Source: Atractiella rhizophila (lineage: Eukaryota). From it: 35,968 nt of DNA. Location of the stretch: NCBI GenBank assembly GCA_021432655.1, contig MU271644.1:1-35968 (forward strand), given 5' to 3'. The notes under the pieces are model-generated. The model searched no databases. It saw only the letters and a list, made by a program, of their open reading frames with translations, and had not been told where the DNA came from. The translations under genes and the position numbers were made by a program. The stretch's first letter is position 1. The number at the start of each line of letters is the position of its first letter. Shown one piece after another: positions 515 to 33,701 of the stretch.

Positions 515-1479
515 TGGAAGGTCATATCAGAAAACTACAGAAAACGGAACAAAATGTTGGAATATAGAGCCTTGCAACATTTATGGAGCCGCCGCTAACA
601 TGTTCATCCGACCCTCGACCACCAATCACTCAGAAGAAGGTAAGCAAAGATAAAACGAACGAGGTAGGAAGAGCAATAGCGTTGTGTACACGACTTCAGG
701 GCGGAAATATTCAAGCGAATGGCTCATGCATTGAACTCCTGTGACTTTCTCACTACGCCACTCCTTTTGAGGTATCTTGCACCATTAAGACTCATTCGGC
801 TAACCGTTTGGGATAGAAGGTGCTAACAAGTGAACTTTCGCAGAATGTTTCGTTATGGCTTTGATAAATGAAGCTCTATACACATCTCAATGTTCTTAAG
901 TTGTTTGTGCTCAAGGGGACAGTATCGAGTGAATGAACACCTGAAGTCCAGTAACACTCAAACCGCAACTGAATAAGCTCATTTACATTCCTGGAAAACT
1001 CAGAAGCATAATAACGTTTGTGATTCGCAGAATTCTTCCCTGCATAATGTACCTTTTCACATGGAATTCCATTCCAGCTTTGTTCACAAGAAGGTAACAT
1101 GAGAGGGACGAAAAGAACACCGTTTGTCCTCGCCTATAAGAGCTTTCTTTTTTCCTATAGCAAAGAAACTGCTCTAGAGAGTTTGTGACTGACAGAGGAA
1201 GATAATCCCAACCGACGGGGCAGTCCATATTGTAAGGTGAGAGAAGCACGTACTTTGTGCTGCAAATGCGGTTTTACGATAAATCCAATGCTCTCCTCCT
1301 GTGTCTCTCCTATTCCGTTCGAATGCCTATTCCTTACTCTATTCTGCCTGCCCTTCTGCAACTCTACTTGTGGATGGTTGGTGGATTAGTAGTTGATCGA
1401 GTTTCTACCCTCATCAACGCATCCAACGCGTCATCAACGAACGACCACCCGCCTTTGCAGCATATTTCACAAAGCAAAT

Positions 1480-2217
1480 ATGGCGAGTTTCCCTTGGAAA
1501 TGTGGGATTTTGCTGACTAGGTCTTCTGGAATGGTAGCTGGTAAGAATTAGAGCGAGAGATGGGAATTTCAGGTACGATGTCAAGGAGACAGATGATATC
1601 CAGGTACTTGTACAAAAGGTGCGCGTTCTTCCTTTCTCTGCTTTCGAATTGGAGTTCGTGAGGCTGTTCTGTACAGTTCCATCGTAAAAGATGTCTGTGA
1701 AGTGGGAAGATGATGGCCATATCTGATGAATGCTTGCTCTTCCTGAGTGTCCCTTCGTACGCTTACGCGTTATTGTGAGACGCTTGAAGATCTCTGCGAA
1801 GAACAGGGAACCGCAATGCCTTACCAATATGTGCTCTGTAGCTTCGATCATGCGGACAGTAGTTCTAATGTGTACCCAAGTCGGCTGTTGAATAGTTGCT
1901 TCCCTGCCTTACGCCACCTGGCAGCCCTATGGATATGTCTCCTTTCACTGCAGAGATCTCCTTTGTTTATATATCGACAGACGGTGTGACCCATATACAT
2001 TGCACGTCCTGTAGCTTTGCGCAGGATATAGTATTCTAGGAGGACATGTGCTAACTAATACTGCAACACAGTTACTGGCAGACATCAAGACTTCAGATCC
2101 CAGCGCTCTTGCCTTCTCTAATCAACCAAGGGGAGGAGAAAATAAAGTAGCCGGACTTCGAGGCTCCCTGAAGAGCTTGGGTATAAAGTAATTTCTCTCT
2201 GCTGTGCATGATTTCTT
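1480..2217 (+). CDS. NPL4: Nuclear protein localization protein 4 (Cdc48/p97 cofactor), 5' exons in normal orientation
   Basis: ATG 1480-1482; GC-AG intron 1483-1537; exon 1538-1618 LVRIRARDGNFRYDVKETDDIQVLVQK; intron 1619-2071; exon 2072-2187 LLADIKTSDPSALAFSNQPRGGENKVAGLRGSLKSLGI; intron from 2188. Resembles the Npl4 N-terminal ubiquitin-like domain and joins in phase to NHGDLLFASY in the mirrored block. Confidence 0.88.
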
Positions 2218-2242
2218 NNNNNNNNNNNNNNNNNNNNNNNNN
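2218..2242. other. Assembly gap (25 N)
   Basis: Run of 25 N directly before the mirrored block. Confidence 0.99.
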
Positions 2243-3028
2243 CATTCCGCTGCTGCCATTGTCGCGTTCGTAGGTGGAGTAGGAGGAATGGTTTTGGTTA
2301 TTGGTGACTGGGTGAGTAACCAGACAAAGCTGAAGTAGGAAAACTTTAGGTAAAGGAAATGGAATGAGTATAACAGAACAAACCACCCGTCCTATGTTCC
2401 TATGTTCGTTCTTCTTCGCATTTGCCCTTCCCCTCGGTAGCTTCTTACGTGAGTTCTTCCGCTTCTCCTCCTACCTTCGGGTAGAGAGGAGGAGACGGCT
2501 ATTGAGTGTTGTCTGTAGGCTCGACCTTTATCTCCAACTCCGAGGAGGTCTACAAGTTCCCCTACTTGCCTGTCTACCTCTACATGTCTACCTCGTCAAC
2601 GGGTATCGCTCGCTGCCGCTCCTTCCCACCACCTACAAGGACTACGTTTCTATCCCCACCTTCTTCTATACCTCGCTCTCCTTCCTGTCGGTTTCTTCTT
2701 TTTCTCTTCCTTCTTGTTCCGAGCACGAAGGCAGGTTAAGATGGGGAGTTAGGCGGTTGTAGAGTGTTGGTGTTAGCGTTAGTGTTAGAGTCAGCCTTTT
2801 ACAGCTCCCCTTCCTCCTCTGGTGCTTCTACAGCTTCGCCCTTGCCTTCTTCAACTCCTTCCGTGTTGTTCGCGACGAAGCGCTTCCCCGTCTCCCCGTC
2901 CTCACCGAAGACGGAGCGGCTAGCTAGTCAGCTTACCACGCCGTTGCCCCAGTCCGCTCTTACCCTTCTTCTTTTTCCCACGCTTCAGTCACCGTCCCTG
3001 CTTCCTTCTTGGTGAGGAGTAACTGACT
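2243..3028. CDS. 3' part of the C1D/Rrp47-family gene (Lys/Glu-rich tail), readable only as the unreversed complement of the + strand
   Basis: Complement reading continues TG|SKATTVTAQASTSSSLPKPITTDPLIG, then an intron, then YKDTSKKKRKREGEPSKNALKKAKRRMEAH...KKKKGAKSVAGTKEEPLLID with stop at 3026-3028. Contains indels. Confidence 0.85.
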
Positions 3029-3150
3029 ACACGTGGAAGCGAAGGTCGTTCGTTCGTCTTGACGAAACCAGAAACGTTCCTGTCAACAATGTTGTAAAAG
3101 AAAATAAAATAACATAGAAATCACTTGTTTCGTTACGGTTTTCCACCGAA

Positions 3151-5234
3151 AATGACGGGTTCGTTGTTTAACTGACGGTTAAGGTGTAAGGGTGGGCGGC
3201 GGAGGTTGTAGGGGAGACGGAGGAGACGGCTTGTGGGTCGGTCTGGGTACTCGTAGACCTGTAGAAGCCTGGAGCGAGGGGCAGGAGGGGGGCGGGGTCG
3301 TGAAGGCGACCAAGGACAAGGACGAGGAGAGCCCCCAACGCTAACTCTACCTCGACTCAGGTAGAGCTACAGGAGAAGTCGGCCCTTCAGTAGCTTCATT
3401 AGCCGACCCTATAGTAGACAAACTCCACGACCGACGCGACGACGTCCACATCCAACCTTCGCCCCACGAAATGTAGGTTCCTTAGTTGGCACTCTCCAAG
3501 TGTTCTCCTCCCCTTCTTTCCGCATGGCCACCGAAGTACTCGTTACCATTGGTCGCAGACGGTTGGCCGGTTGGGTGGGTTAAATAAGTGGGAGAGAAAC
3601 GCGAGAAATAGTGAGAAGCGGCAGCGGTGCGACGGTTCCTGAGAGTACAGGAGGAAGGGTTTGTACGGTGATCATAGGTTCTTTCGCTCCTCCACTTTCA
3701 GCGAGTTGGTAAATCGCTACCGTTCGAGTAGGGGAACGAAGTCGTTGCCACGTTCGAAGGCAAGGTGGTTTAACCAATTTAGAACTAGAACTTTGGGACC
3801 AGCCAAAAGCTAAAGCTTGCCTCAACCTCTCTCCTTAACTCCTAACCCATTCCGACCGTGAGGCACACTCTGCCAGTGCTCGTCCATAAGCTGTCCCTTC
3901 GTTCCAAATCGCCTAAGGAAGTGGAGCTACAACATAAGCAAGAACATCGCCATCTTCTGTAGCCCGTGCATAGAAAGGTTCATCGCCATAGTGACTCTAC
4001 AAAGACTTATCTTCCTTATCTTGAATGTGTAGCAGCGAACCAAGTTGTTAGAACTCAACAGGTCCTAGTAAGCATCGGGATTGTTACAAGCGGAGGCGGT
4101 TAGGGTAGCGGACTAGCGACTGAACTATCCGACATTGGAGGCATAGAGGTAGAAATAAGGGTGAGTCTGTGTTCAGTGCTTTGCTGACCTTTTAAAACGG
4201 TCACATTCTTATGAACCTTCCTCAAACTATTAACTCAACGGCTGCTCGTCGCTTCTATTAAAGCTCTGTCCTCTCCATCATGCTCAGACGTACAGCGAAT
4301 ATACACTTAAAGACCGAGAAGCGGAGAACACAAAAGAGGAGTAGATCAAGCTCTAGCCACATATACGTGGGCTGCTAAAACTCAGGAGGTGTATCCAATC
4401 GTTCCAGGGGTTAGGCTGGAAGGAGGAGGGTTCCGTAGGGTTAGAACTAAGGTAGGCCTGACGGGAGAACTCCTCCGAGCATCTAGCGGAGATGGTGGCG
4501 GAACTGCGGGTAGCCGTGCTCAAGCATGCCAAGCATAGCTGGATAGTCCTTGGGTTTCGCAACGTTGGCGCAGACGACGGTCTTCAACTTCTTTAGGGCG
4601 TGCCAGACTCCTAGCCTCTTAAGCTGCACCAGGTGGTAGGCCTTGAAAACGTCACGGTTACAATATCGCCTACCAACTGTAAAACACGTATAAGGCCGCC
4701 CCATTCCTCGCACCCTAAGCCAACCTGTTCCACTGACCTGAAATATCTTACCGCCACACTCTCTCCCCCCTATATCCAACGCCTAAACCCTAGCCTGCTA
4801 CATCTACTCCTTCCGCCCTCCTATCTGAAGTCTATTCGCATCACCCTCTCCATGAACTATAACACAAGGAAGACTATCAAGCGCAGCATGCCGATGGGAT
4901 CTCCGCACTTGGGGGAAGGGTTACAACTACACTTCGTTAATCTGCTTGGAGTTCTCCGTACGGTTATTAGTGTGTACGAGAAGCGGGGTACGGACGTGTA
5001 GGCGCATAGGGAACCTGCTCCCTAGAAGGGTAGGAGAAAAAGGGTTATAAACAGATGGAGTAGGAGGAGGTGTACGACGGTACCGAAGCGACGACGACTA
5101 CTTGGACGGAAGCTCCTAGGTCGAAGTTGACTCCAACTACAACTTCGCCGTGGTAACCGGTGCTCGCCGCCTCCCCCCAGACTTCTACGTAGTAGAACCC
5201 CTCCCCCATTCTTCGTTTTTCCTCCAGAGGTACC
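3151..5234. CDS. NPL4: NPL4 main body (zf-NPL4, NPL4/MPN-like domain, C-terminal UBA-like domain), readable only right-to-left on the + strand without complementing
   Basis: Backward translation gives [29 protein letters not shown](C)MPLE, [113 protein letters not shown] and LSDFHLLAFL. Stop TAA at 3153-3151. Several 1-nt indels, e.g. near 4962. Confidence 0.95.
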
Positions 5235-5303
5235 GACGTCCTTGTCAGTCATTGATTCTTTAGTACGTGTCGTCTCTCTTTAATGAAATATGGGTTCGAG
5301 AAG

Positions 5304-5965
5304 TTCCTGTGGATGCTGGAGGAAGAGAGGAAATGCCCGATTCTTGTCCGGTTATAGTTGGTGAGGATGTAGGTGCCGACGCTTGGGAGATAGCATGTCT
5401 GATGAACCTGTCGGCGGCTTCCTTGTCCACTCTTGTCGTCCCTATCCATCAAAAAAGGACGACCCTTCAACACCGTCTCTCTCAGGTCAAATGGGATGAA
5501 GAGCGTACGTTTCTCTTCTTTTTCACCCGCTTTCTGTACCTTTGTGAAATACGCCTTCACAGTCCCCTTCAATCATCGAAGCTTACTTTTAGGTATTTGC
5601 AGTCTTGTTTAGAAGGGAGACGCACGAGTTCATTTTGCACTGGATGGGTTGAAGGATCTATTCCTTTCAATTTCAGGTAGACTATCCCGAGCCATGCAAA
5701 TCAATATTCCATCCATCCATCCGTCCCGCCATCTTGTCCCATAACCATAACGAAAGGGAACATGTATGAAAAGCGCACCAAAGACCAAATCATAGACGGT
5801 ATAAGCCATAGTCACGCTCTGCTTCGCCTGCACGAGCAACGGGCTCTTCTCAAGCTCTTCGATCGAAGCGGGCGACAATACGTCGTCCAATGCACTCTCC
5901 AAGGCGGATAGCGAGTCGGACATGGCGTCAAGGGTATCATGCAGGGAGGAAGTCGTGTCATCCAT
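5304..5965 (-). CDS. C1D / Rrp47 (Lrp1)-like nuclear exosome cofactor (Sas10/Utp3/C1D family), 5' exons
   Basis: MDDTTSSLHDTLDAMSDSLSALESALDDVL...PLLVQAKQSVTMAYTVYDLVF|VYLKLKGIDPSTHPVQNEL|GTVKAYFTKVQKA...|RVDKEAADRFIRHAI across GT-AG introns. The YLKxxGxDPxxHPVxxEL and DKxAAxRFI motifs are typical of C1D/Rrp47. Confidence 0.88.
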
Positions 5966-6225
5966 TCTGGCGTCTCAACTTCTGTCTGCTATGTTATGTA
6001 GCTCGTTACGCGGCGATGACAGACGAGCTGAAGCTTCTAGAGAGGAGATTATTGGTTGACGGAGTCTAGAAAATTTGCGCCGCATTCCCTTGGGCAGCAA
6101 TTCCAGTGTTATGGATACACTAGAATCACATCACTGAAAACAGCGTAGAAGAGGATAATATTATCAAGTCCATCAAGATGTAGAGTGTTCACAGAGTCCG
6201 TGATGTCCATCAACGAATGAAATGC

Positions 6226-7829
6226 TTAAAAGAGAGCAGGCAAGCCCAACAGGACCACTGCAGCTATACAGCCACTGATCCAACCCGTTGCTCTCCCTCC
6301 AGCACCAGACCCGTTTCCTCCTCCTCCTCCCGTGCTACTACCTCCAGGAGCTGTAGCGGTGCCGGTCGCGGTGACGGAGGTTGGTGCGCCTGTGAAGGTC
6401 TTGATGTATGCAACCTCGAAGTAAGCGTTGCTGTTCACCCATATCATCCGTCAACTTTGCCTCCTTCGGTACATGTAGAGGAGAGAGTGGGGATGGGAGG
6501 GGACAGACTTGTAGTTGGTCGGATCGCCCACTAGGTCGGTACATGTTCCAGTGCATGTTTGGGAGTAGATGGCCGCATTGCCAGCGAATGCACCTACGAT
6601 CCAAACCTGAGTAAGCTCCAATCGGCCATGCTAAGATGGGAGAGAAACAAACCGCAGATATTGGTGCCCAACACCAAGCTCTGAGCCTCAAAGAACGTCT
6701 GCGGATTGCAAGTGGCGGCTGGCCACGAAGCCTGTGGCTCTCCCCATCCTTCAGGGTTGGGCGATTGAGAGGCCGACTGGATGTCTGACGGGAGGGAAGA
6801 GCGGGGGAAGAACCAGGTGCGGATTCCGTCTGCGTCCCAGAGCATCGCGTATACCTTCCCTCACAACCACCACCGACGGATGATTAGCCATTGATCGTAT
6901 ATGGCGCAAACGGAATTTGTAGGGTACTGGAACAAGCGTACCCCTCCACCAGAAGATGCGAATCCTGCGCCTGCGCTACCGTCGCGAGAATCGGAAAACG
7001 CACACCCAAGGTTATCGTTCACTGTGTGGTCGCAATTGGTGGAGAGGACTGTAGCATCAGTGTATGCGAAAGCGGAGGAAGAGGAGACGTTGGATTGAGT
7101 GCATCCGGTGCCTGTATGGAGGGTCATCTGGTTGTGCGTTCTTTGGTTCACGCCTGTGGGAGAGGTGGGCATAAATGTATAGGATTGAGAGGAAGAGAAT
7201 AGCTGACTCTCGAAAATGTCGATCTCTCCCTGTGCCGATTTCTGGGTAGAGCTTGCGATGGTCCAGAACGAAGGCCAGGTGGAACATCCATACGGTACAT
7301 GTAGGAAGTCCGCGAGGACGAGCGTTCCTATCGATATCGGGTCTTTCGAGATCAGCCTCTATTCCAGCGTCAGTAATCCTTCGCTTTGGCAGAAGGAGGG
7401 GAAGGAAGACGGACGACTACGTTGCGACCGAACGTCGAGTCCCCAACGCCACTCGTCGTGTTGTCAACTGCCACAATCGCATTCCCGGCAGAGTTGAGGT
7501 AGGTGAGATTGAGAGCGAGGGCGTCAGTTTGTCCAACGAAATGAACGTTTCCCTGTCAGTTCACTCAGTGGGCGATTCTTTCCGACTTCGAATGGTCTTG
7601 AAAGGAAGGGGACTGACAAAGTTGTCTGCTCACCGAAAGCACGTTAGTAAGGAAGCAGGACTGCATAGAGGAGAGACGGACCAGCGTCGATGGCGCTCTG
7701 GTTGTAAGTCCAGCCATCAAAGAAGGTGGTCCCGGAATAGGTCTTTGAGAGGGAGAGGGTGTATGCGTTCGCCAATCCCAATCCGAAGCTGGCGAGAAGA
7801 ATGAGCATCATCACACCTCGACCAATCAT
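6226..7829 (-). CDS. Glycoside hydrolase family 16 (fungal Lam16A-like beta-glucanase), secreted, probably GPI-anchored, multi-exon
   Basis: Signal peptide MMLILLASFGLGLANA; YSGTTFFDGW; HVPYGCSTWPSFWT; catalytic GEIDIFE (ExDxxE) near 7209-7230; NQMTLHTGTGC; GIRTWFFPRSSLPSDI; AYFEVAYIKTF; Thr/Gly/Ser-rich linker and hydrophobic C-terminus IAAVVLLGLPALF*. Confidence 0.92.
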
Positions 7830-9301
7830 CAGCGGATTTCTGCTAGACTAGTAAACAAACCTACCAAGGCTGGACTTGGAGCTTAAATTTGATGCGGACT
7901 GAAGGGATACAGGGATACGTTTGAGGATACAGTATTATTGAAAGGTGATATTTCTAGACTCTGAATGGAAGTTCTCAAAAGAACCGGGAAGAACAACTTG
8001 GGCATTGTCCTTCCACGTGATTTACAGCCTTTCCTTTGTCGCTATGGTCTGCTGCGATTATCTTTTGCATTTATGGAGATCCACATCCACCAATTCGCCA
8101 TAATTTTCGATCAATCAATAGGTCTGGGAGAGTGGGAGGTGCCAGGTGAACTACGCCCTGACTGAATGATGTGTGGAACGAGTTAAGTGGTGTCGACGGA
8201 GGGGGAAGGCATCTCATTAGCTAAGGTATCATCATCTCATCCTTTGATTTTGCTCAGCGATCGGCTTTCTTGAGTTTCTCATTCGAGTTTCCTATTGGCA
8301 GTCTGCCCGCCCACCCTGTGAGCTTCAAGGCCAAGGTGTTTCAGCGTGGTTTGTCAGAGGAGCGTGTTGTGATGGGATCTTGTCGCCAGGAGTGTGAGAA
8401 GCAGTGTGAGAAGAAGTCGCCGTATGCGCGCTCATGGTGGCGATTGTTGCGCACAGCTCAAGAAGACGAGACGTGTCCATCTCCTTGAGCTATGGATGCC
8501 TTTGCTCTGGTGAGTGGATCCAGAGCCTTTGATCCTGTGGCCGTCAATTGTCCACTTCAAGTTGGCTTGACGAAGGTTCTACCCTGGCACTGGATGCATG
8601 TTTGTTCTCCTTTGCGTCAATGCGATGATGCAAATTCAAGCAATATTCATCTAAGCGTCCGCGTTTCATCTCATCTTCACACGTGTCTAACTTGTTTGGT
8701 GAAGTTGGACCCATTCCCTTCCCATGCAAGAGTCAGCTTCAAAAGTCTTCTTCGTTGGACTTGACTGCATGAGCCACTGTGCTTCCCTTGTAGGAGGACA
8801 GCCATCACCGGGTTTGAGTGGGGTCGCAAATACCTCCGTCCTCCTTCCCATTCTTCCGGGCAATCCACGGACGATGGATTGTCAACTGCAAAATGCATCT
8901 CTATGACGCCCAATTATCATGATCGAGGAGCTTGACTTGGAATTTCCGGTCCTTCTTCTCCGCGCCTTCAAGATCTCCTTGAAATCTCTTGCATATCTCC
9001 ATCAAGACAAATTCCCTCAAAACAAAAGGAAGATTTCCTTCCTGTTCATTCCATACATCAAATTTTGATTCCATTCTTGTTTCGGCTGGGGACCTGGAGC
9101 TCGCCCGGAATACTTGGTCGCTTGGGGACAGACGTACAAATAGATCTCTTGTTCACTTCCCTTCCCCTTTTGAAGCTTCGCCTTCTTCTCCCGCCCTGCC
9201 TCAAAGGACGATCCTTCCTCACTTCCTTTATCATCGCTCCCTTTCCCTCGAATTGCAACACTTCAAGACTTTAAGACTCTGGTCTGTTCGATTTGCATAA
9301 G

Positions 9302-9724
9302 ATGCGTTACAGGCGCCTGTTGAGAAAGGCGTCTCCCGTTAGAGCTTTCAAGCGAATGGTAAGTCGCTCCTTCATAATCACCACACGAAGCGAAAACTGA
9401 GCATTCATTAAACTGGAAACAGAATCGCTCCAACCCTAGCCGCAAACACCGTGACGGCAACCACCTTCGCCAAGCGAGCGTAGACGTGAAGAAGGTGATG
9501 GAGACAAACGGACAGTTCAGAGTCGACTATCCCCTCCCGCCTTCTTTCCTCCCTCTCTTCCTCATCCTCGCTTTCGTCACCCCAACTAGGTACGTCTACT
9601 CCCGTCAATCACAGTGAGAATTAGTTTTTGATTGTCCATCGATGCGATTAGTGCTCCTCGAGACAAGAAGAAGGATGACGAGTTTTTGGATGAATGCGAG
9701 CTTGACCCGTTGCTCGCTCGTTGA
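9302..9724 (+). CDS. Candidate small 3-exon hypothetical protein (80 aa from ATG 9356, 98 aa from ATG 9302)
   Basis: Introns 9359-9422 (gtaagt...aaacag) and 9590-9651 (gtacgt...attag) join in phase to give ...MNRSNPSRKHRD...FRVDYPLPPSFLPLFLILAFVTPTSAPRDKKKDDEFLDECELDPLLAR*. No homology recognised. Confidence 0.3.
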
Positions 9725-10985
9725 GTAGAGAGGATGGAAAGAGATTGGTAAGTTCCACCCTCGTCCTTAAGAGCGATCGAGAGGCTGAGCACACATCTTG
9801 GATAGCATTCCGTCTTGTGATAATGCGTAATATACCCACACTCTTTCGGTTTTCAATTCGATCACTGCACTTGTACCTTTACAGCAATACCCAGCAGAAG
9901 AATTATCAACGGTTAAAATTTGCACACACTCGATCATCCAAACTGTTCCCAGTTTATCAATTGCCGAGAGGTGTTTGCGGTCTCGTTCGTTCTTGAGAGC
10001 TGTTAACCTTGCTCGGTCATGTTCAATGAGCACAAAGCTGACGAGGAACCAAGACTCATGATCTTTCCGTGATGTTTTATCTGTGCAGTTGACTATTTCA
10101 AGAACATGGACTGCTCCATCTCGCCACGGGCTTACAAGATGAGAGAGAACGCCAAAGACTCCAATCTGATCGATGGTGTACCCTGACTGATCTGAAGCGC
10201 CCTGACTGTAATGTGTACTGCTGCATCAGGACAGCTCTCACGCGAGGCACGATGGAACCGGATCCCAATCAATATTCAGTACCCTTCCAGAGTCTGACCG
10301 TTCGGATATTCGAATTATTTTCTCACCTAAGATCGTGGAATACGTGAAACCCAACGCGTGCCTGCCGAATTCGCAAGAGCACGAGTTTGGTCTACACACG
10401 TCACTCATGTTTTCTTGTGAGATTGTGCGACGGGTGCTTGTGGGGATGAATGTGGGCAAATGTTTCCCGAAACATTTTTGATTATTGAATTGCAGGTTCA
10501 CTTCAGATTTGTTTGGAATGGGTCAGGCACAGTTGGCACGAGAAGCACGACGAGGACGAAGCTCAGACGAATGCGAACTAATGATCTCCTTCTGCTTACA
10601 TATAAATAGTCGGAATCTTCTATCCTTGCTCACATCGCCCTGGCATCTTCTCGTCGACCAGCGTCGACTACTCTTCCTCATTTGCACCACCACGATACTC
10701 ATTTGCACCACACAATACTCACAGACCTCCATCCCAAATCAATCTACCTTGCCTGGAGGATCCTCCCCTGGAGGGTCCTTCCAAACTGCCACGCCATCAC
10801 CATCCGGACCCTTTGGGCTACAGAGACGGTCGCCTTCGCCAAACTTGGGTATCTTAGACTGCCCAACACTTCTTCTCGACCTGCTGCCCTTCTTACCGTG
10901 AAGTAGGGCGACAGCAGGCGATCAAACCCAAAACATACAAAACTCTCTACTTAGTGGGTTTGAACCATTCCTCCCTTCTTTTTGT

Positions 10986-13900
10986 TTGTCAGTCGCAACA
11001 CAATCAGGAGAAAAAAAATTCAGTAACTATGATGACTCCACAGTAGGACTCTCTCAGTCTCAGTCAATCAACGACCCAACTTTACCACTTTCTCCAACTG
11101 AATCAGTCAACAATAATGTGACTTTACGACTTCCTGTTCCTGGAAGCCCATGGCGGCCCAACACCTTGAACCCCGCCTCACGCCTACGGACCAGAACGAA
11201 TGCATCATCCTCCTGCCGACCCACCTCCCATAACAAGCCCAGCCCCCGTGCCATTCCCTGGACTGGCGGTTCCAGACCACGCCGTTTGTCCCTTTGTATC
11301 CCTCTCTCAACACAGGAACGTACCATCGAGCATCTAAATTCGGCGTCAGCATCATCTCCTTTTTCACCGAGCTCAGATGATACAGAGCTTGAAGGCACAG
11401 GTCGCTGGATCAAGCCGGCAGATCGAAGGACGACGCGCGACGTTTCGTGGTATCCCGCATCCACTTACCAGTGTTCATCACCTCCGGCAGCAGTTAACCC
11501 CATCGATCCCTCTCCCTTGTGGTCTTGGAAGGAAAGGAACATTCCAGCAGACCAATGGGAGGAGTACCTTCTTCCGGGCATCAAGTTTTCGGTGTGCCCT
11601 AGCCTCAGCAACACGACTGTTTCCCCTGGAGATTTGATACACTGCCATATTCACCTGTCACCCCAACACGACGTCAGCGAGAATGAAAAGGTGGATATCA
11701 TTTTTTCTGGCATTAGCACCGTGGATGCAGAGTCGTGTGTCCGTCTCTTGCTTTTAACGATGAATGACTGATCGCTTTATGGGAAGCAGGCCAGAATACT
11801 ATACCTTTCTTCAGCTTACGAAATCAGTCATTCTGAAAGAACTCAAGCCGTTGCGCGAGTGGAGGTTTGAGTTCAAGGTCCCTCTTTATACGAACTGCGC
11901 TTGCCCTAGATCCAAAGTCCCCGTTCCAACGACATATCGAGACACAAAATTCAGCATCAATTATTCGATCCAGCTAAGGAGGAACAGATTCTTAGATGAG
12001 ATTTCGATACCTGTTATAGTACAACGAGGGGATCACGTCTTCGCGACGGCAACTGGATTGGTAGCGAATGGTGGAACAGATAGTCTCTGGAAGTGTGTAT
12101 GGGCCAGTGATCCGCGCCTCTTGACCTTCGCCAACCAAAGCCCGCCTGTTCCATTTGCTGAGGTAGGTTTTGTCTCCACTGATGGCTGTATGCCTATCCA
12201 TGCACTTACTGATACTCAATACCTAGCTCAGCTATCACATCTTTAGGCCCACCGGCAAAGCTTCGTCCACTACCATCTTCCTGAACTACTGTTTCTTGAT
12301 ACAACGTGACGATCCCGCTTACTCCCCAAACGAGGCGCTCAGCTCGCTCATGGAGAAACTTCAGATTTCATTGTCACGGCGGATACTAGGGAGAGGGGGG
12401 CAGGAGAGTAGAACAGTTTTACCAATTGAACAGCTATCATCGAAGGGAAGGAAAGTTGGCGTGGGAATTTCTGGCACCGACCAAGGCTCAGTCTGGACGA
12501 TTGAAGGGTGGATCGAGATCACGAAAGACGATCTTTTGATCTGGGATAGCTGCAATGCTGAAATGCAGGTACGCTACTCCAGTTAATCTTGCTGCATATG
12601 ATTGACTGTATCTTTATTAGGTGCTTCTATCCGCCCATTTATCTCATCCTGCCCTCTCTTATGGTATCACCATTGAGACCCCTATCGACGACTTCAGAGC
12701 GATCGAGGTCGATATACACCATGGCGTGTTCACTGAATTACCTTGCGATCGATCCTTTTACGTCCCCCTCAGCACATCAGAAATGAAGGCTCCCTCTCTA
12801 CCTCATATCCCTCAATCCCAACTCGCTCCACTTCCCAATACGGCATCTGTCTTTGATCGCAACACAGCGATACAGGCTTCAGCGAGTGTCCCCATTGGCA
12901 ATGCGCGGATTGGATCGAACGAGGATACTTATTCTCTTCATATCCGACACATCAAATCCTTTGAGTCATACAAATATGAAGACCTCAGTTCAGGTACATG
13001 TTTTGAATTCAGCCGTGACCTGTTCGTTCGTATGAGTCGCGAGCTACACACTCCAGTATCACCCATTTCAGTATCACCCACCCCAAGCTTTGATTCTTTC
13101 GAGGCGACTCCCAGCAATTCTGGTGCTGAATCTCGCCACGATCTCATAGAAATCTCTGATGATTCTACTCCCCACCGCAGGGATGTAGCTGGAGCTTTCA
13201 CTCCTGAATTCCGTTCGAGTGAATTTGCACAACTACATCATGAAAATCAGTCTGAGACTTCGGGGTCAACTTGGGATTCTCCGATTAGCGAGCATCAATC
13301 TTCACAACGATATCGTTTTGATTCTACAGAAGACCGCGCCGATACTCTTCCGGAAGAAAGCTGGCGTAAAGAGCAACGCATTAACCAAAGAGCGGAACCA
13401 GGGCCGTCTCGTTTGCCTCTCGATCTGGCTAAGAAACGGTCCCCAACGGCCCACTTTGCACCCATAACGTCAAGAATGTCAGCTTCGAGCCACGGCGCGC
13501 CGATCGATTCGTATACCATTCGACCGACAACACGAGACCCAATCGTAACCGCATCTGCGTTGCACTCTTCTGGCAACCTGCGTCCTACGGAAACGACGAC
13601 CCAACCCTTGAGATCGATCAGAGCCTCACCCCGTGGCGGAATGCTCTGCATCTACCCCATGCAGAAGGACCTGATCGGCTATTGGGATCACCAGAATCTG
13701 CGAATTGAGGGCAGGGCACCATCTTCGCCTTCAAAAGAATTCCATGACCCGAAAACGAGCAAAAAGCTAAATAAATGGACTGAACTCAGGTTTGATAAGG
13801 ATACATATGTGGAAGTTCGGTTGGATAACGTTACCGTTACTCCGTGGAGTAGGAATGGCCTTGGTGAGCCTTATTTTTTGAATGAAAACCAAATATCTGA

Positions 13901-15590: not shown

Positions 15591-18500
15591 TCAGGAGAGA
15601 TTTTGAAACCGTAGGAATAGATCAGCCTCCGCAAGGTCATTAACATGATAAAGCCCATCGTCGACCGGATCTGGTTGAATATAACAGCTTCGAGCAATGT
15701 TTTCCGTCAGAATAAAGCTGAGTTGCTCTTGTCCTTGGAGAAGAGGCATGCCAGACAAGTAATGCCTTCCGACCCATTTATACTCACAAACTAATGCCAA
15801 CTGGAACTCCTTATCTTGTATTCGACAAGAAAGTAGACGGATGACGCGTCCAAAAGAGACCGTGTTGTCGTGGTCGCACAGAATGACGTCGTCGTAACGT
15901 GGTTTGCCGCTGGTCTGCCAGTTCGGATGAGAGCGAATGAGGTCTTCGTACTCTCTTTCGTCAACCCACGAATTAAATGAGCAGCGAAAGAGTGTATAAT
16001 CCGTAATCTGAGAGCTATGAGTAAGCGATGCTAGTGCGTAATCAATTGCAAGAATGGGAACGTACCGTGGACTCGTCAATCTGAGGTAGGTGCTCCTGGC
16101 GGACACGTATGGGGGTTGAAGGATTGATGTTTCGAAGGAGGAAGAGCCGGAGGTCATTAACCAAGTCTTGTCGAGTGTTGAATTCAACAGCAAGCTCGCG
16201 GAAGTAGGTTTGAATGTGAAAGCGTTTCGACGAGCCACAGAGACGGAGGTTGGGAGTATCACCATGAGTCCAAATCTGGCAACGATCCTCTTCACCACAA
16301 TCGAGCCGCAACGCATTGGCTGCATTGACGCGCCATTCGATCGCTCGAAGTTGCATCATCTCGAACGCACGCTGTGCCATCTGCGTTCAACTAAGACGAG
16401 CTTGAAGCTTGCACGGCACACACAACTCACCGATTCTTCAGTTTCGCCATCAACTGTACTGCAAATGGCCCGAGCAATTACGTGCTCTTTGAGAGGACGA
16501 TGAGCCCGCTCACCGTGTGCTGTGGTTTGATGGTCCAGCGTGCCGCCTTCACAGATCATGTCGACAAAATGCTGTGGTAGATGGCCTTTTGGAAACTTGG
16601 CTGACATACCAAAATGCTTGTGGAGTGTCTTCACCGCAGCATTGAGAAAAGATGCAATTAAAAAACTGAGGCGTACCTTGAGAGCAGCTTCAAACCACCG
16701 CAATTGGTGATTTCGAAGTGCTGAAATTCGATCGTCATCTTGAACGTGCATTTTCACAAGTACTTCGAAGGCAACCAATGCCCGCAATGCTGGAATGACC
16801 TCCTGCTCAATCTCTGCACGAAGGATGCTAATCATCCCAACAATTAAGAAACTGTACCCCAATAGTCAGTTTGGTGATGAGTAGAGAGAACAAAGAGATG
16901 ATTCACCTTCATTGCGTCTTGAATTTCCATGCAAGTAAAACTCTCGAGGTTAGTCAACCCACGTTTCGGAACATGACGCAAAGATCCATATGGTGGCAAG
17001 GAAATGAGGCTGGAATATGCAAGGACATGTCATAATTTGAGCTATAGAAAATGACAGAAACTCACTATGAATCAACCTGTTCCTTCTTTGCTGTTGAGAG
17101 GTTTTCGAAAAGCTTTTGCATGACATGGTCTTTATACAGTCCACCAAAGATGTGAGATACAATGGTCAATCCGCTCACATGCGGCAATACCTTCCTATTC
17201 TGGAAGCGGCTCCCGCCTAACTTGGAAGTGACATTGACCACTGTATACCTCACAACTCCCCCGTCTCTCTACACCTCTCCTGTCGGCTCCAAGCGCGTAC
17301 AATCGATCGGGAGAAGAAGGGAAGATAACCGCATGGTATCTTAGCCTTATCCAGAAGCTGGAAGGCAAGATCCGTCGATTCCCTGGTGAGCCTCGTTTGA
17401 TTCCCTTCAGCTTCCTCTTCGTTCCATGCTTTCAGATTATTCTATATTTCTATCTACTTATGTATTACGGGTTTTCCCACGATGTTGTTTGATCTTTTAT
17501 CCGATTCATTGGCCTATAAAAGAGGCCTCACTTGTTAATGTAAATTCATCTTATTCCTCATCATCTTACTTCGCACTCATAGCAGAAAGCGCGGTAAGAA
17601 TCGAGGTAAGTTCCCCGGGCCGTAGAAGCGCCCCTGTAAGATCCACTGTCTTATTTCTGAGACCAAATAGCTTGATAAGCGGCCCTGCACTTCAGTGTGG
17701 CTAGCATAAGCTGGTTCCTGTCTTTCCTTTTCGTTTAAGCTCTCATTCATTGATTGAGCATCCTAGTTTCTCGCTCTAATCGAGCTAAAGGAACTCGCTT
17801 TTGCAGTAGAGTCTCACAAAAGACATGCAAAGAGTCCGCTGCAATAGCCTGGTAGACATCGCTGCATTTTAAGCGACAGAAGGCAGACTGCTCAGATATG
17901 AGCATGAGCAATTAGATAGGGTTGCGACGTGCCTTTTCAGGGCGCAAAGATGATGTGCTTGTCAATTCCTTGACAGCTATGTTCATGCCTTCGGCATCTT
18001 TGGTGCGCTGGTATTGCTTAAGCTGACGTTGCGCTTGTTGCAAGCTTCTCTTTGGAAATTGTTTCGTGAGGTGGTGAAGGTGTGCCTTTGGAGCAAGGCA
18101 AATTGGACATTTGAACTCAGAATTGACGCCAAAGAGGAGGAGGAGGATATAGCTGGTGAATGATATTAGTACGAACACAGCAACTGTTGAAACGACCAAC
18201 AGTTCTGCTAAGTCAGCCTGCAGAAGGAATAGACGGGGGAAAATGAGCTTATCGAACTCATTTCCTACTCGAACCCTGAATCCAACTTGCTCATATTGTC
18301 TGATTTGCTTCAAAACGATTCCTATGACCTTGTGATAAACAGAGCGTCTGTACAGGCGAAAATTTTTGCTTTTCTTCTGCTGATCTGTAGCAGGAATCTG
18401 ATCTCTCATGAATCACTTTGACGAAGTAGTGTAAAATCAATTTACTTACTTCAGGCTGAAATCCAATTAGCTGGCACCCTCCTTTCCCATTTCCACTCCT

Positions 18501-32116: not shown

Positions 32117-33701
32117 ATGTCAAAAACAAACACCCTAAAGCGGGCTCCTTCCTCGGTATCCTCCGGGGGAGCTCAAAAACCGCCGTAGCACCATCGACGA
32201 ATCGGCGCGCTGAAGAGGGGGAGGACGAGATGGGCGAGTTTGAGGATGAGTGGGAGGACGAGTTCGAGGAGGAGGACATCATCAGTAACCCCGGACAGCG
32301 ATGCGGAGCGGGAAGCAGAGGAAGATGAGCGGATGGAGAACTGTGGCTGAGGAAGCTGAGAAGATGAAGATCGACGGTGCGTCTTCTGAAGAAGAAGAAG
32401 AAGAGGAGGAGGAGGAGGAAGAGGTCGTGGCGCACTTGCCGGGTCAGAAATTGGAGGAGGGCCATGAACTTAAGCCGGATATGGCTGTCTATCCGCTTTT
32501 GCACTCTATGTCTCTCAAATGGCCTTCACTTTCGTTCGATGTCCTTGCAGACGGCCGGGGAGACGAGAGACGCAAGTTTCCTATGGACGTCACTGTCGTA
32601 GCCGGACACAGGCAGGCGTGAGAGGAGAGGATGAAGTGGTTGTCATGCGATGGGAAGGTCTGAGTCGAACAGACAAAGGTTCGTCATGTTCCCTCACAGC
32701 CCACGCTCCTTTCTTTGGCAAAATTGACATTGATGGGGAGTATTGCAGATCNNNNNNNNNNNNNNNNNNNNNNNNNNNNNNNNNNNNNNNNNNNNNNNNN
32801 NNNNNNNNNNNNNNNNNNNNNNNNNNNNNNNNNNNNNNNNNNNNNNNNNNNNNNNNNNNNNNNNNNNNNNNNNNNNNNNNNNNNNNNNNNNNNNNNNNNN
32901 NNNNNNNNNNNNNNNNNNNNNNNNNNNNNNNNNNNNNNNNNNNNNNNNNNNNNNNNNNNNNNNNNNNNNNNNNNNNNNNNNNNNNNNNNNNNNNNNNNNN
33001 NNNNNNNNNNNNNNNNNNNNNNNNNNNNNNNNNNNNNNNNNNNNNNNNNNNNNNNNNNNNNNNNNNNNNNNNNNNNNNNNNNNNNNNNNNNNNNNNNNNN
33101 NNNNNNNNNNNNNNNNNNNNNNNNNNNNNNNNNNNNNNNNNNNNNNNNNNNNNNNNNNNNNNNNNNNNNNNNNNNNNNNNNNNNNNNNNNGCACATGAGA
33201 GCGATGTGAATGTTATGAGTTGGAACAAACATTCGACTTATTTGCTCCTCACCGGTGGAGACGAGGGAGGAATCAAGGTGTGGGACTTTAGGAACTTTCA
33301 ATCGTTCGTCCTCCTCCCTCCTCTCCCTCACCCCTATCACCACAAATACGATTCTAATTAACGATGTGCATAGAAAAACGAACACCCCGACCCCCGTCGC
33401 CTCGTTCTCATGGCACACAGCTCCCATAACGTCGATCGAATGGCACCCGTCCGAAGATTCCTGTTTCGCCGCCTCAGGAGCCGACGACCAAGTGACGCTG
33501 TGGGACCTTTCAGTGGAAATCGACGAGGAAGAATCGACCGCAAAAGGCCAGAAAGGGTTGGAGAAGGTCCCGCCGCAATTGTTGTTCATACATCAGGGAC
33601 AGAAGGAGGTCAAGGAGATACATTGGCACCCTCAGATTCCGGGAGTTGTGGTATCGACTGCGGTGGAGGGTTTTAATGTTTGGAAGAGCATTAGTATCTA
33701 G
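32117..33701 (+). CDS. RRB1: Ribosome assembly protein Rrb1 / GRWD1 (glutamate-rich WD40 protein), spans the N gap, apparent frameshifts in the 5' part
   Basis: [46 protein letters not shown](TQA); [89 protein letters not shown]. Confidence 0.93.
32752..33190. other. Assembly gap (439 N)
   Basis: Run of N inside RRB1. Confidence 0.99.

Follow-up and report, generated by a model that had tools for sequence, protein, structure and literature searches.

A reversed but uncomplemented 3-kb block beside a 25-N spacer in an Atractiella rhizophila scaffold, and the two genes that it conceals

The window analysed here is a 35,968-nt stretch of Atractiella rhizophila DNA (GenBank assembly GCA_021432655.1, contig MU271644.1, positions 1 to 35,968 of the forward strand). 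Close to its start, directly after a run of 25 N, lies a block of 3 kb which is almost certainly a software artefact, the true sequence being the reversal, without complementing, of positions 2243-5304. No DNA molecule has the sequence of the block as it is written. When the block is reversed in place, it supplies the missing remainder of an NPL4 gene on one side and of a Sas10/Utp3/C1D-family gene on the other. A mirror overlap at the spacer, contigs from public runs at both borders and protein homology that appears only after reversal all agree with the original prediction, made from the sequence alone, that a gap-extension sequence had been written reversed but not complemented.

The mirror overlap and the sequence across the borders

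When all 16-mer mirror seeds of the window were compared, one non-self-overlapping mirror match was observed. It is 49 nt long: positions 2169-2217 are the exact reverse (non-complement) of 5256-5304, and the identity stops at 2168/5305. The overlap had been described as 48 bp (5256-5303). Its mirror nature stood, but not its extent, and the block is consequently taken as 2243-5304. The other mirror seeds (at 17101, 35667 and 35943) are short self-overlapping mirror palindromes of low complexity. In 20 mononucleotide shuffles the longest non-overlapping mirror match was 13-16 nt, and as the 49 nt observed lie far above this maximum, the observation is real and beyond chance. A count of N runs found two in the window, one of exactly 25 N at 2218-2242 and one of 439 N at 32752-33190. 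The parts of the affected region are as follows.

2169..2217, plus strand: end of the left contig, 49 nt, correctly written; NPL4 exon up to 2187 and then 30 nt of the next intron; matched as written by contigs of runs X1, X2, X6 and X3
2218..2242, no strand: 25-N spacer; no true gap, as block and left contig overlap and contigs of X1 and X2 pass 2217 unbroken
2243..5304, no strand applicable: reversed uncomplemented block, 3,062 nt; the true plus strand, 5' to 3', runs from 5304 down to 2243; adjoins the right contig without N
5256..5304, no strand applicable: mirror copy of 2169-2217 (exact mirror identity), the portion of the fill that overlaps the left contig

Six public runs matched the right flank (5304-12000) and four of them were compared with the window over 1001-6500, all as contigs. 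X1 and X2 come from one sample (study P1) and contain 0.77-0.78 of the words; X3 belongs to study P2, and no study is named for X6. The contigs of X6 and X3 are spliced and RNA-like.

At the left border, the X1 and X2 contigs run more than 255 letters beyond 2217, and the first 30 of these letters are the reverse of 5226-5255 (30/30). The X6 and X3 contigs jump instead from 2184/2187 to the reverse of 5234 downwards, which are the first exon letters after the acceptor predicted for the NPL4 intron at this border (27/27 in X3). At the right border, contigs of X1, X2 and X6 enter 5306 with 30 letters that are the reverse of 2244-2273 (30/30). With X1 and X2 counted once, the left junction is backed by three sources and the right junction by two. 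The sequence had been expected to pass from 2217 to reversed 5255 and from reversed 2243 to 5304. The first passage was found in the contigs of the public runs; at the second, the reversal was found but the exact join was not, as X1, X2 and X6 join '...CCTTA' to 5306, 3 nt shorter than proposed and with the reading frame unchanged. Depth was 0 in all four runs for the bins covering 2289-5232 as written, and this was not counted as evidence.

The two genes of the block

Relatives of the two genes were found via exons of the unaltered window, and comparisons with the reversed block were made in scripts. The gene parts are listed first.

1480..2187, plus strand: 5' part of NPL4, correctly written; exons end at 1616 and 2187; RNA-like contigs join 1481>1537 and 1616>2070; translation MLVRIRARDGNFRY...
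3151..5234, read from 5234 down to 3151, no strand applicable: remainder of NPL4, from residue 58 to the stop; introns 4948-4893, 4027-3973 and 3526-3468, from the P0001 alignment
5305..5965, minus strand: 5' part of the C1D-family gene, residues 1-146, correctly written; introns 5778-5682, 5625-5567 and 5508-5442; supported by the P0003/P0002 alignment, X6 joints (CT..AC) and PF04000
2243..3028, no strand applicable: 3' part of the C1D-family gene, residues 147-384 and TGA; to be read, the written letters must be complemented and taken from 2243 rightwards

When the NPL4 exon 2072-2185 (extended to 2066-2185 for 40 aa) was used as query, one protein was found. This protein, P0001 (674 aa), is encoded on a 227,530-nt contig, and its source calls it the Npl4 component of Atractiella rhizophila, 'partial'. 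It is 95% identical to the second NPL4 exon over the 40 aa queried, and all 38 exon residues are identical (38/38). P0001 carries PF05020 and PF05021, both above the gathering score (348 and 200 bits), and matches solved Npl4 chains with an E-value of 6e-129.

The block as written (2243-5303) contains no open frame longer than 142 aa. After reversal, frames of 304 and 293 aa were observed on one strand and of 155 and 153 aa on the other. A tblastn search with P0001 gave 0 matches on the block as written. Once the block was reversed, which amounts to taking its complement in the opposite direction, residues 63-674 were covered with E = 0. Both the Npl4 match to the reversed, non-complemented sequence and the orphan-like appearance of the written one (no tblastn match, no frame above that length) had been anticipated.

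For a residue-level comparison, an alignment routine was written that permits GT..AG introns and frameshifts. With the block reversed, residues 1-674 of P0001 were aligned on the window and 662 of 672 aligned codons were identical (98.5%), with residues 58-674 encoded by the reversed block. On the scaffold as written, NPL4 is cut after residue 57. Four NPL4 introns (GT..AG, 51-59 nt) lie inside or enter the block, the three wholly inside it measuring 55-59 nt. The fourth straddles the border: it begins at 2188, ends at 5235 within the reversed block, and is 51 nt long and in phase 2. Its recovery bears out the proposal that reversal completes an NPL4 intron and reading frame; because the jumps of the X6 and X3 contigs match the predicted acceptor, this intron is spliced in real transcripts. 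Past the last residue of P0001 the NPL4 frame stays open for 30 more codons until a stop at 3153-3151, and five frameshifting indels were placed in the block (near 5209, 4961, 4763, 4197 and 4169).

At the other end of NPL4, the two RNA-like joints listed above (1481>1537 in X6; 1616>2070 in X6 and X3, with GT..AG borders) lead to the Npl4 N-terminus MLVRIRARDGNFRYDVKETDDIQVLVQK. Shifting the cut of the first, small intron by one would make it begin with GC instead of GT. The P0001 model itself starts with 18 residues from 1816-1869, which is within the second intron, and ends 30 codons short of the stop. Both ends of this model look mis-called.

In the case of the minus-strand neighbour, a search with the first exon (5780-5965) yielded two proteins, both from the same species. 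P0003 (384 aa) is encoded, like P0001, on a contig of 227,530 nt. P0002 (344 aa) is encoded on a contig of 35,968 nt, exactly as long as the window, and is the public gene model on this scaffold. Both carry PF04000 (Sas10/Utp3/C1D) at residues 12-90 with 45-46 bits, and no solved structure matched the C1D-family protein at E <= 0.01. The neighbour had been named a C1D gene. Judged by PF04000, the family holds; 'C1D' appears to be a label at the family level, and a finer name, such as C1D/Rrp47 as against Sas10/Utp3 or Lcp5/neuroguidin, would be unsupported.

When P0003 was aligned with the block reversed, residues 1-384 were placed with 367 of 381 identical. The alignment contains three introns in the flank, one in the block (2321-2391) and a surplus codon at 5304. 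The X6 joints 5440>5508, 5565>5625 and 5681>5779 fall at the same places as these flank introns. Three frameshifting indels were placed in the block (near 2627, 2731 and 2897) and the stop is a TGA at 3026-3028. The surplus codon agrees with the contig join that is 3 nt shorter. Thus the original prediction was right that the frame continues across the right end, but the junction it gave is 3 nt (one codon) too long according to both the contigs and P0003. The three surplus nucleotides 5304-5306, which P0003 and the contigs of X1, X2 and X6 lack, belong either to the end of the fill or to the start of the right contig. Two convergent genes, with 122 nt separating their stop codons, make up the whole block.

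P0002 and P0003 are identical over residues 1-146 (146/146) and unrelated after that point. Residues 147-344 of P0002 (198 residues) map to the block as written via four 'introns', one of 1,712 nt, and 339 of the 344 residues of the protein are identical to the translation. P0002 is therefore chimeric, with a tail translated from mirrored DNA. As had been argued, both genes look truncated when the block is left uncorrected: NPL4 is cut, and the public model of its neighbour is threaded through mirrored DNA. Since each of the two genes has an intact model on the 227,530-nt contig, they are hidden on this scaffold but still present in the assembly.

Origin of the block and competing explanations

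Eight frameshifting indels were found across the roughly 2.6 kb of the block that are coding (five in NPL4 and three in the C1D-family gene), compared with 0 in the 57 and 146 codons of the flanks. This difference favours a separately derived, unpolished long-read piece. In the sequence of events that we propose, a piece of about 3.06 kb, in all likelihood derived from long reads, would have extended the right-hand contig leftwards across the gap and entered the scaffold as a reversed, uncomplemented string. The fill would have spanned the entire gap, with its far end overlapping the left contig by 49 nt; with this overlap unrecognised, a minimal 25-N spacer would have remained. A gap filler of the PBJelly kind may have been at work, with a code path that reverses the string (which is correct for quality values) and omits the complement. 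PBJelly counts runs of at least 25 N as gaps and uses reads to extend the flanks (English et al. 2012, PMC3504050; PMC6240028), so that the 25 N of the spacer equal its minimum gap length. For another fungus, PBJelly was used to patch assemblies made with AllPathsLG (PMC12923307). We consider it somewhat probable that a PBJelly-type leftward extension of the right-hand contig made the block. The more general proposal, that the overlap, the 25-N spacer and the scattered indels fit long-read gap filling, is in keeping with the eight indels of the block and the absence of any in the flanks.

A different software step could also be responsible, namely a contig or component in minus orientation that was reversed without complementing at scaffolding, AGP building or submission, with no gap filler involved. 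The end product would look identical. However, the block has N on one side only and adjoins the right flank directly, it shares the 49-nt overlap with the left contig, and it carries the eight frameshifting indels that the flanks lack. The one-sided N, the overlap and the indels point to a lower-quality piece attached to the right contig, and not to an ordinary contig between two gaps. We regard this alternative as improbable.

In the case of a real 3-kb mirror rearrangement in the strain, NPL4 and its neighbour would be destroyed on that haplotype. Nothing positive speaks for it, and the written sequence is found only in the assembly record. Reversal without complementing inverts the polarity of the backbone, and we know of no replication, repair or recombination reaction that does so; the rearrangement would need 3'->5' polarity, which no known polymerase or recombinase makes. 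In addition, every contig that reaches the borders continues as the reversed sequence, and after reversal the block retains open frames, GT..AG introns and 98.5% identity to the Npl4 of the other scaffold, as random 'mirror' DNA would not. On the polarity chemistry and the border contigs, such a rearrangement was excluded, and its probability is vanishingly small. Smaller still is that of a chance or low-complexity mirror repeat (of the H-DNA-forming kind) beside ordinary non-coding DNA: short mirror palindromes do exist in the window (the three self-overlapping 16-mers), but the match is 49 nt of mixed sequence with copies 3 kb apart where shuffles reach 16 nt at most, and reversing 3 kb yields two colinear genes.

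Several points weigh against an artefactual block whose reversal is the true sequence. Three surplus nucleotides stand at the join 5304/5305. The match at the borders covers 30 letters per end, and the interior of the block is confirmed by protein homology and not by independent DNA. X1 and X2 may be the source sample of the assembly itself and hence not independent; over the 1,195 nt of 5306-6500 they also deviate from the window by about 2% (21 letters, 5 gaps), which looks like a second haplotype. The 49-nt overlap is free of errors though the block elsewhere has them, which is compatible with a low error rate. In the literature, none of the listed papers on Atractiella rhizophila was found to state an assembly method, and no link of the genus to PBJelly turned up. 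Nor did the phrasings tried bring up any account of an assembly artefact that is reversed but not complemented; to judge by titles and abstract openings, the papers listed for them deal with subjects other than genome-assembly errors.

The biological interest of the block is low, as the genes are ordinary and intact copies exist on another contig; its value is for curation. Mirrored DNA escapes strand-aware tools (six-frame translation, both-strand BLAST and read-orientation checks) and passes as orphan sequence. One public record is already affected, as the last 198 of the 344 residues of P0002 derive from letters that are present in no molecule. It is conceivable, though we would put it on the doubtful side, that the error is systematic, with one gap-filling or extension code path writing leftward extensions reversed and uncomplemented. 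If so, this assembly and similarly patched public assemblies would hold many mirror blocks beside 25-N gaps, each hiding genes from homology search and seeding chimeric 'hypothetical proteins' like P0002. Other cases would be found by a simple screen in which the sequence beside each 25-N gap, reversed but not complemented, is matched to the flank across the gap or to the remaining assembly.

The rest of the window and comparison with known systems

When open frames of the written and reversed sequence were compared in sliding windows, only the block and positions 1-1500 were flagged. A second mirrored stretch at 1-1500 was rejected, because the 245-aa reversed frame is of low complexity (Leu and Arg runs) and an RNA-like X6 contig, which joins 1254 to letters matching 484-509, supports the latter as written. 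At the flanks of the 439-N gap (32752-33190), neither a mirror seed nor an open-frame preference for reversal was found. A 175-aa open frame on the minus strand (2-526) runs off the start of the window. The X6 joint from 1254 to 484-509 suggests that a minus-strand gene, with an intron about 740 nt long, lies immediately upstream of NPL4.

Both genes were also observed on the 227,530-nt contig, which carries the same species name, and at the protein level the flank exons are identical there. The window probably represents a redundant scaffold or one from a second haplotype. At 1076-1250, X1 and X2 show alternative letters at half depth; together with the differences of about 2% at 5306-6500, these fit a heterozygous or dikaryotic source.

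Compared with known genes, neither product of the block is unusual. The first is a plain member of the family of Npl4, the cofactor of Cdc48/p97 with Ufd1; the second is an ordinary member of the Sas10/Utp3/C1D family (PF04000). Only their representation on the scaffold is broken. As an assembly feature, the block resembles the 'reduced' and 'overfilled' gaps of PBJelly in its residual 25-N spacer, its sequence on one flank, its missed overlap and its indel-rich fill (PMC3504050). It differs from them in that overfilled gaps are extensions without an identifiable overlap, and reversed-uncomplemented fills are not described in the available text of that paper (PMC3504050).

A misassembly inversion by reverse complement is likewise a local orientation error beside a scaffold gap which breaks gene models. 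Such an inversion, however, is still a possible DNA and its genes are visible in six frames, whereas tblastn was blank on both strands of the present block as written.

Natural mirror repeats (H-DNA/triplex) are short, adjacent, homopurine-homopyrimidine tracts. The overlap described here shares with them the reverse, non-complement symmetry on one strand; in contrast to them, it is 49 nt of mixed sequence, its copies are separated by 3 kb, and the entire stretch between them consists of reversed coding DNA.

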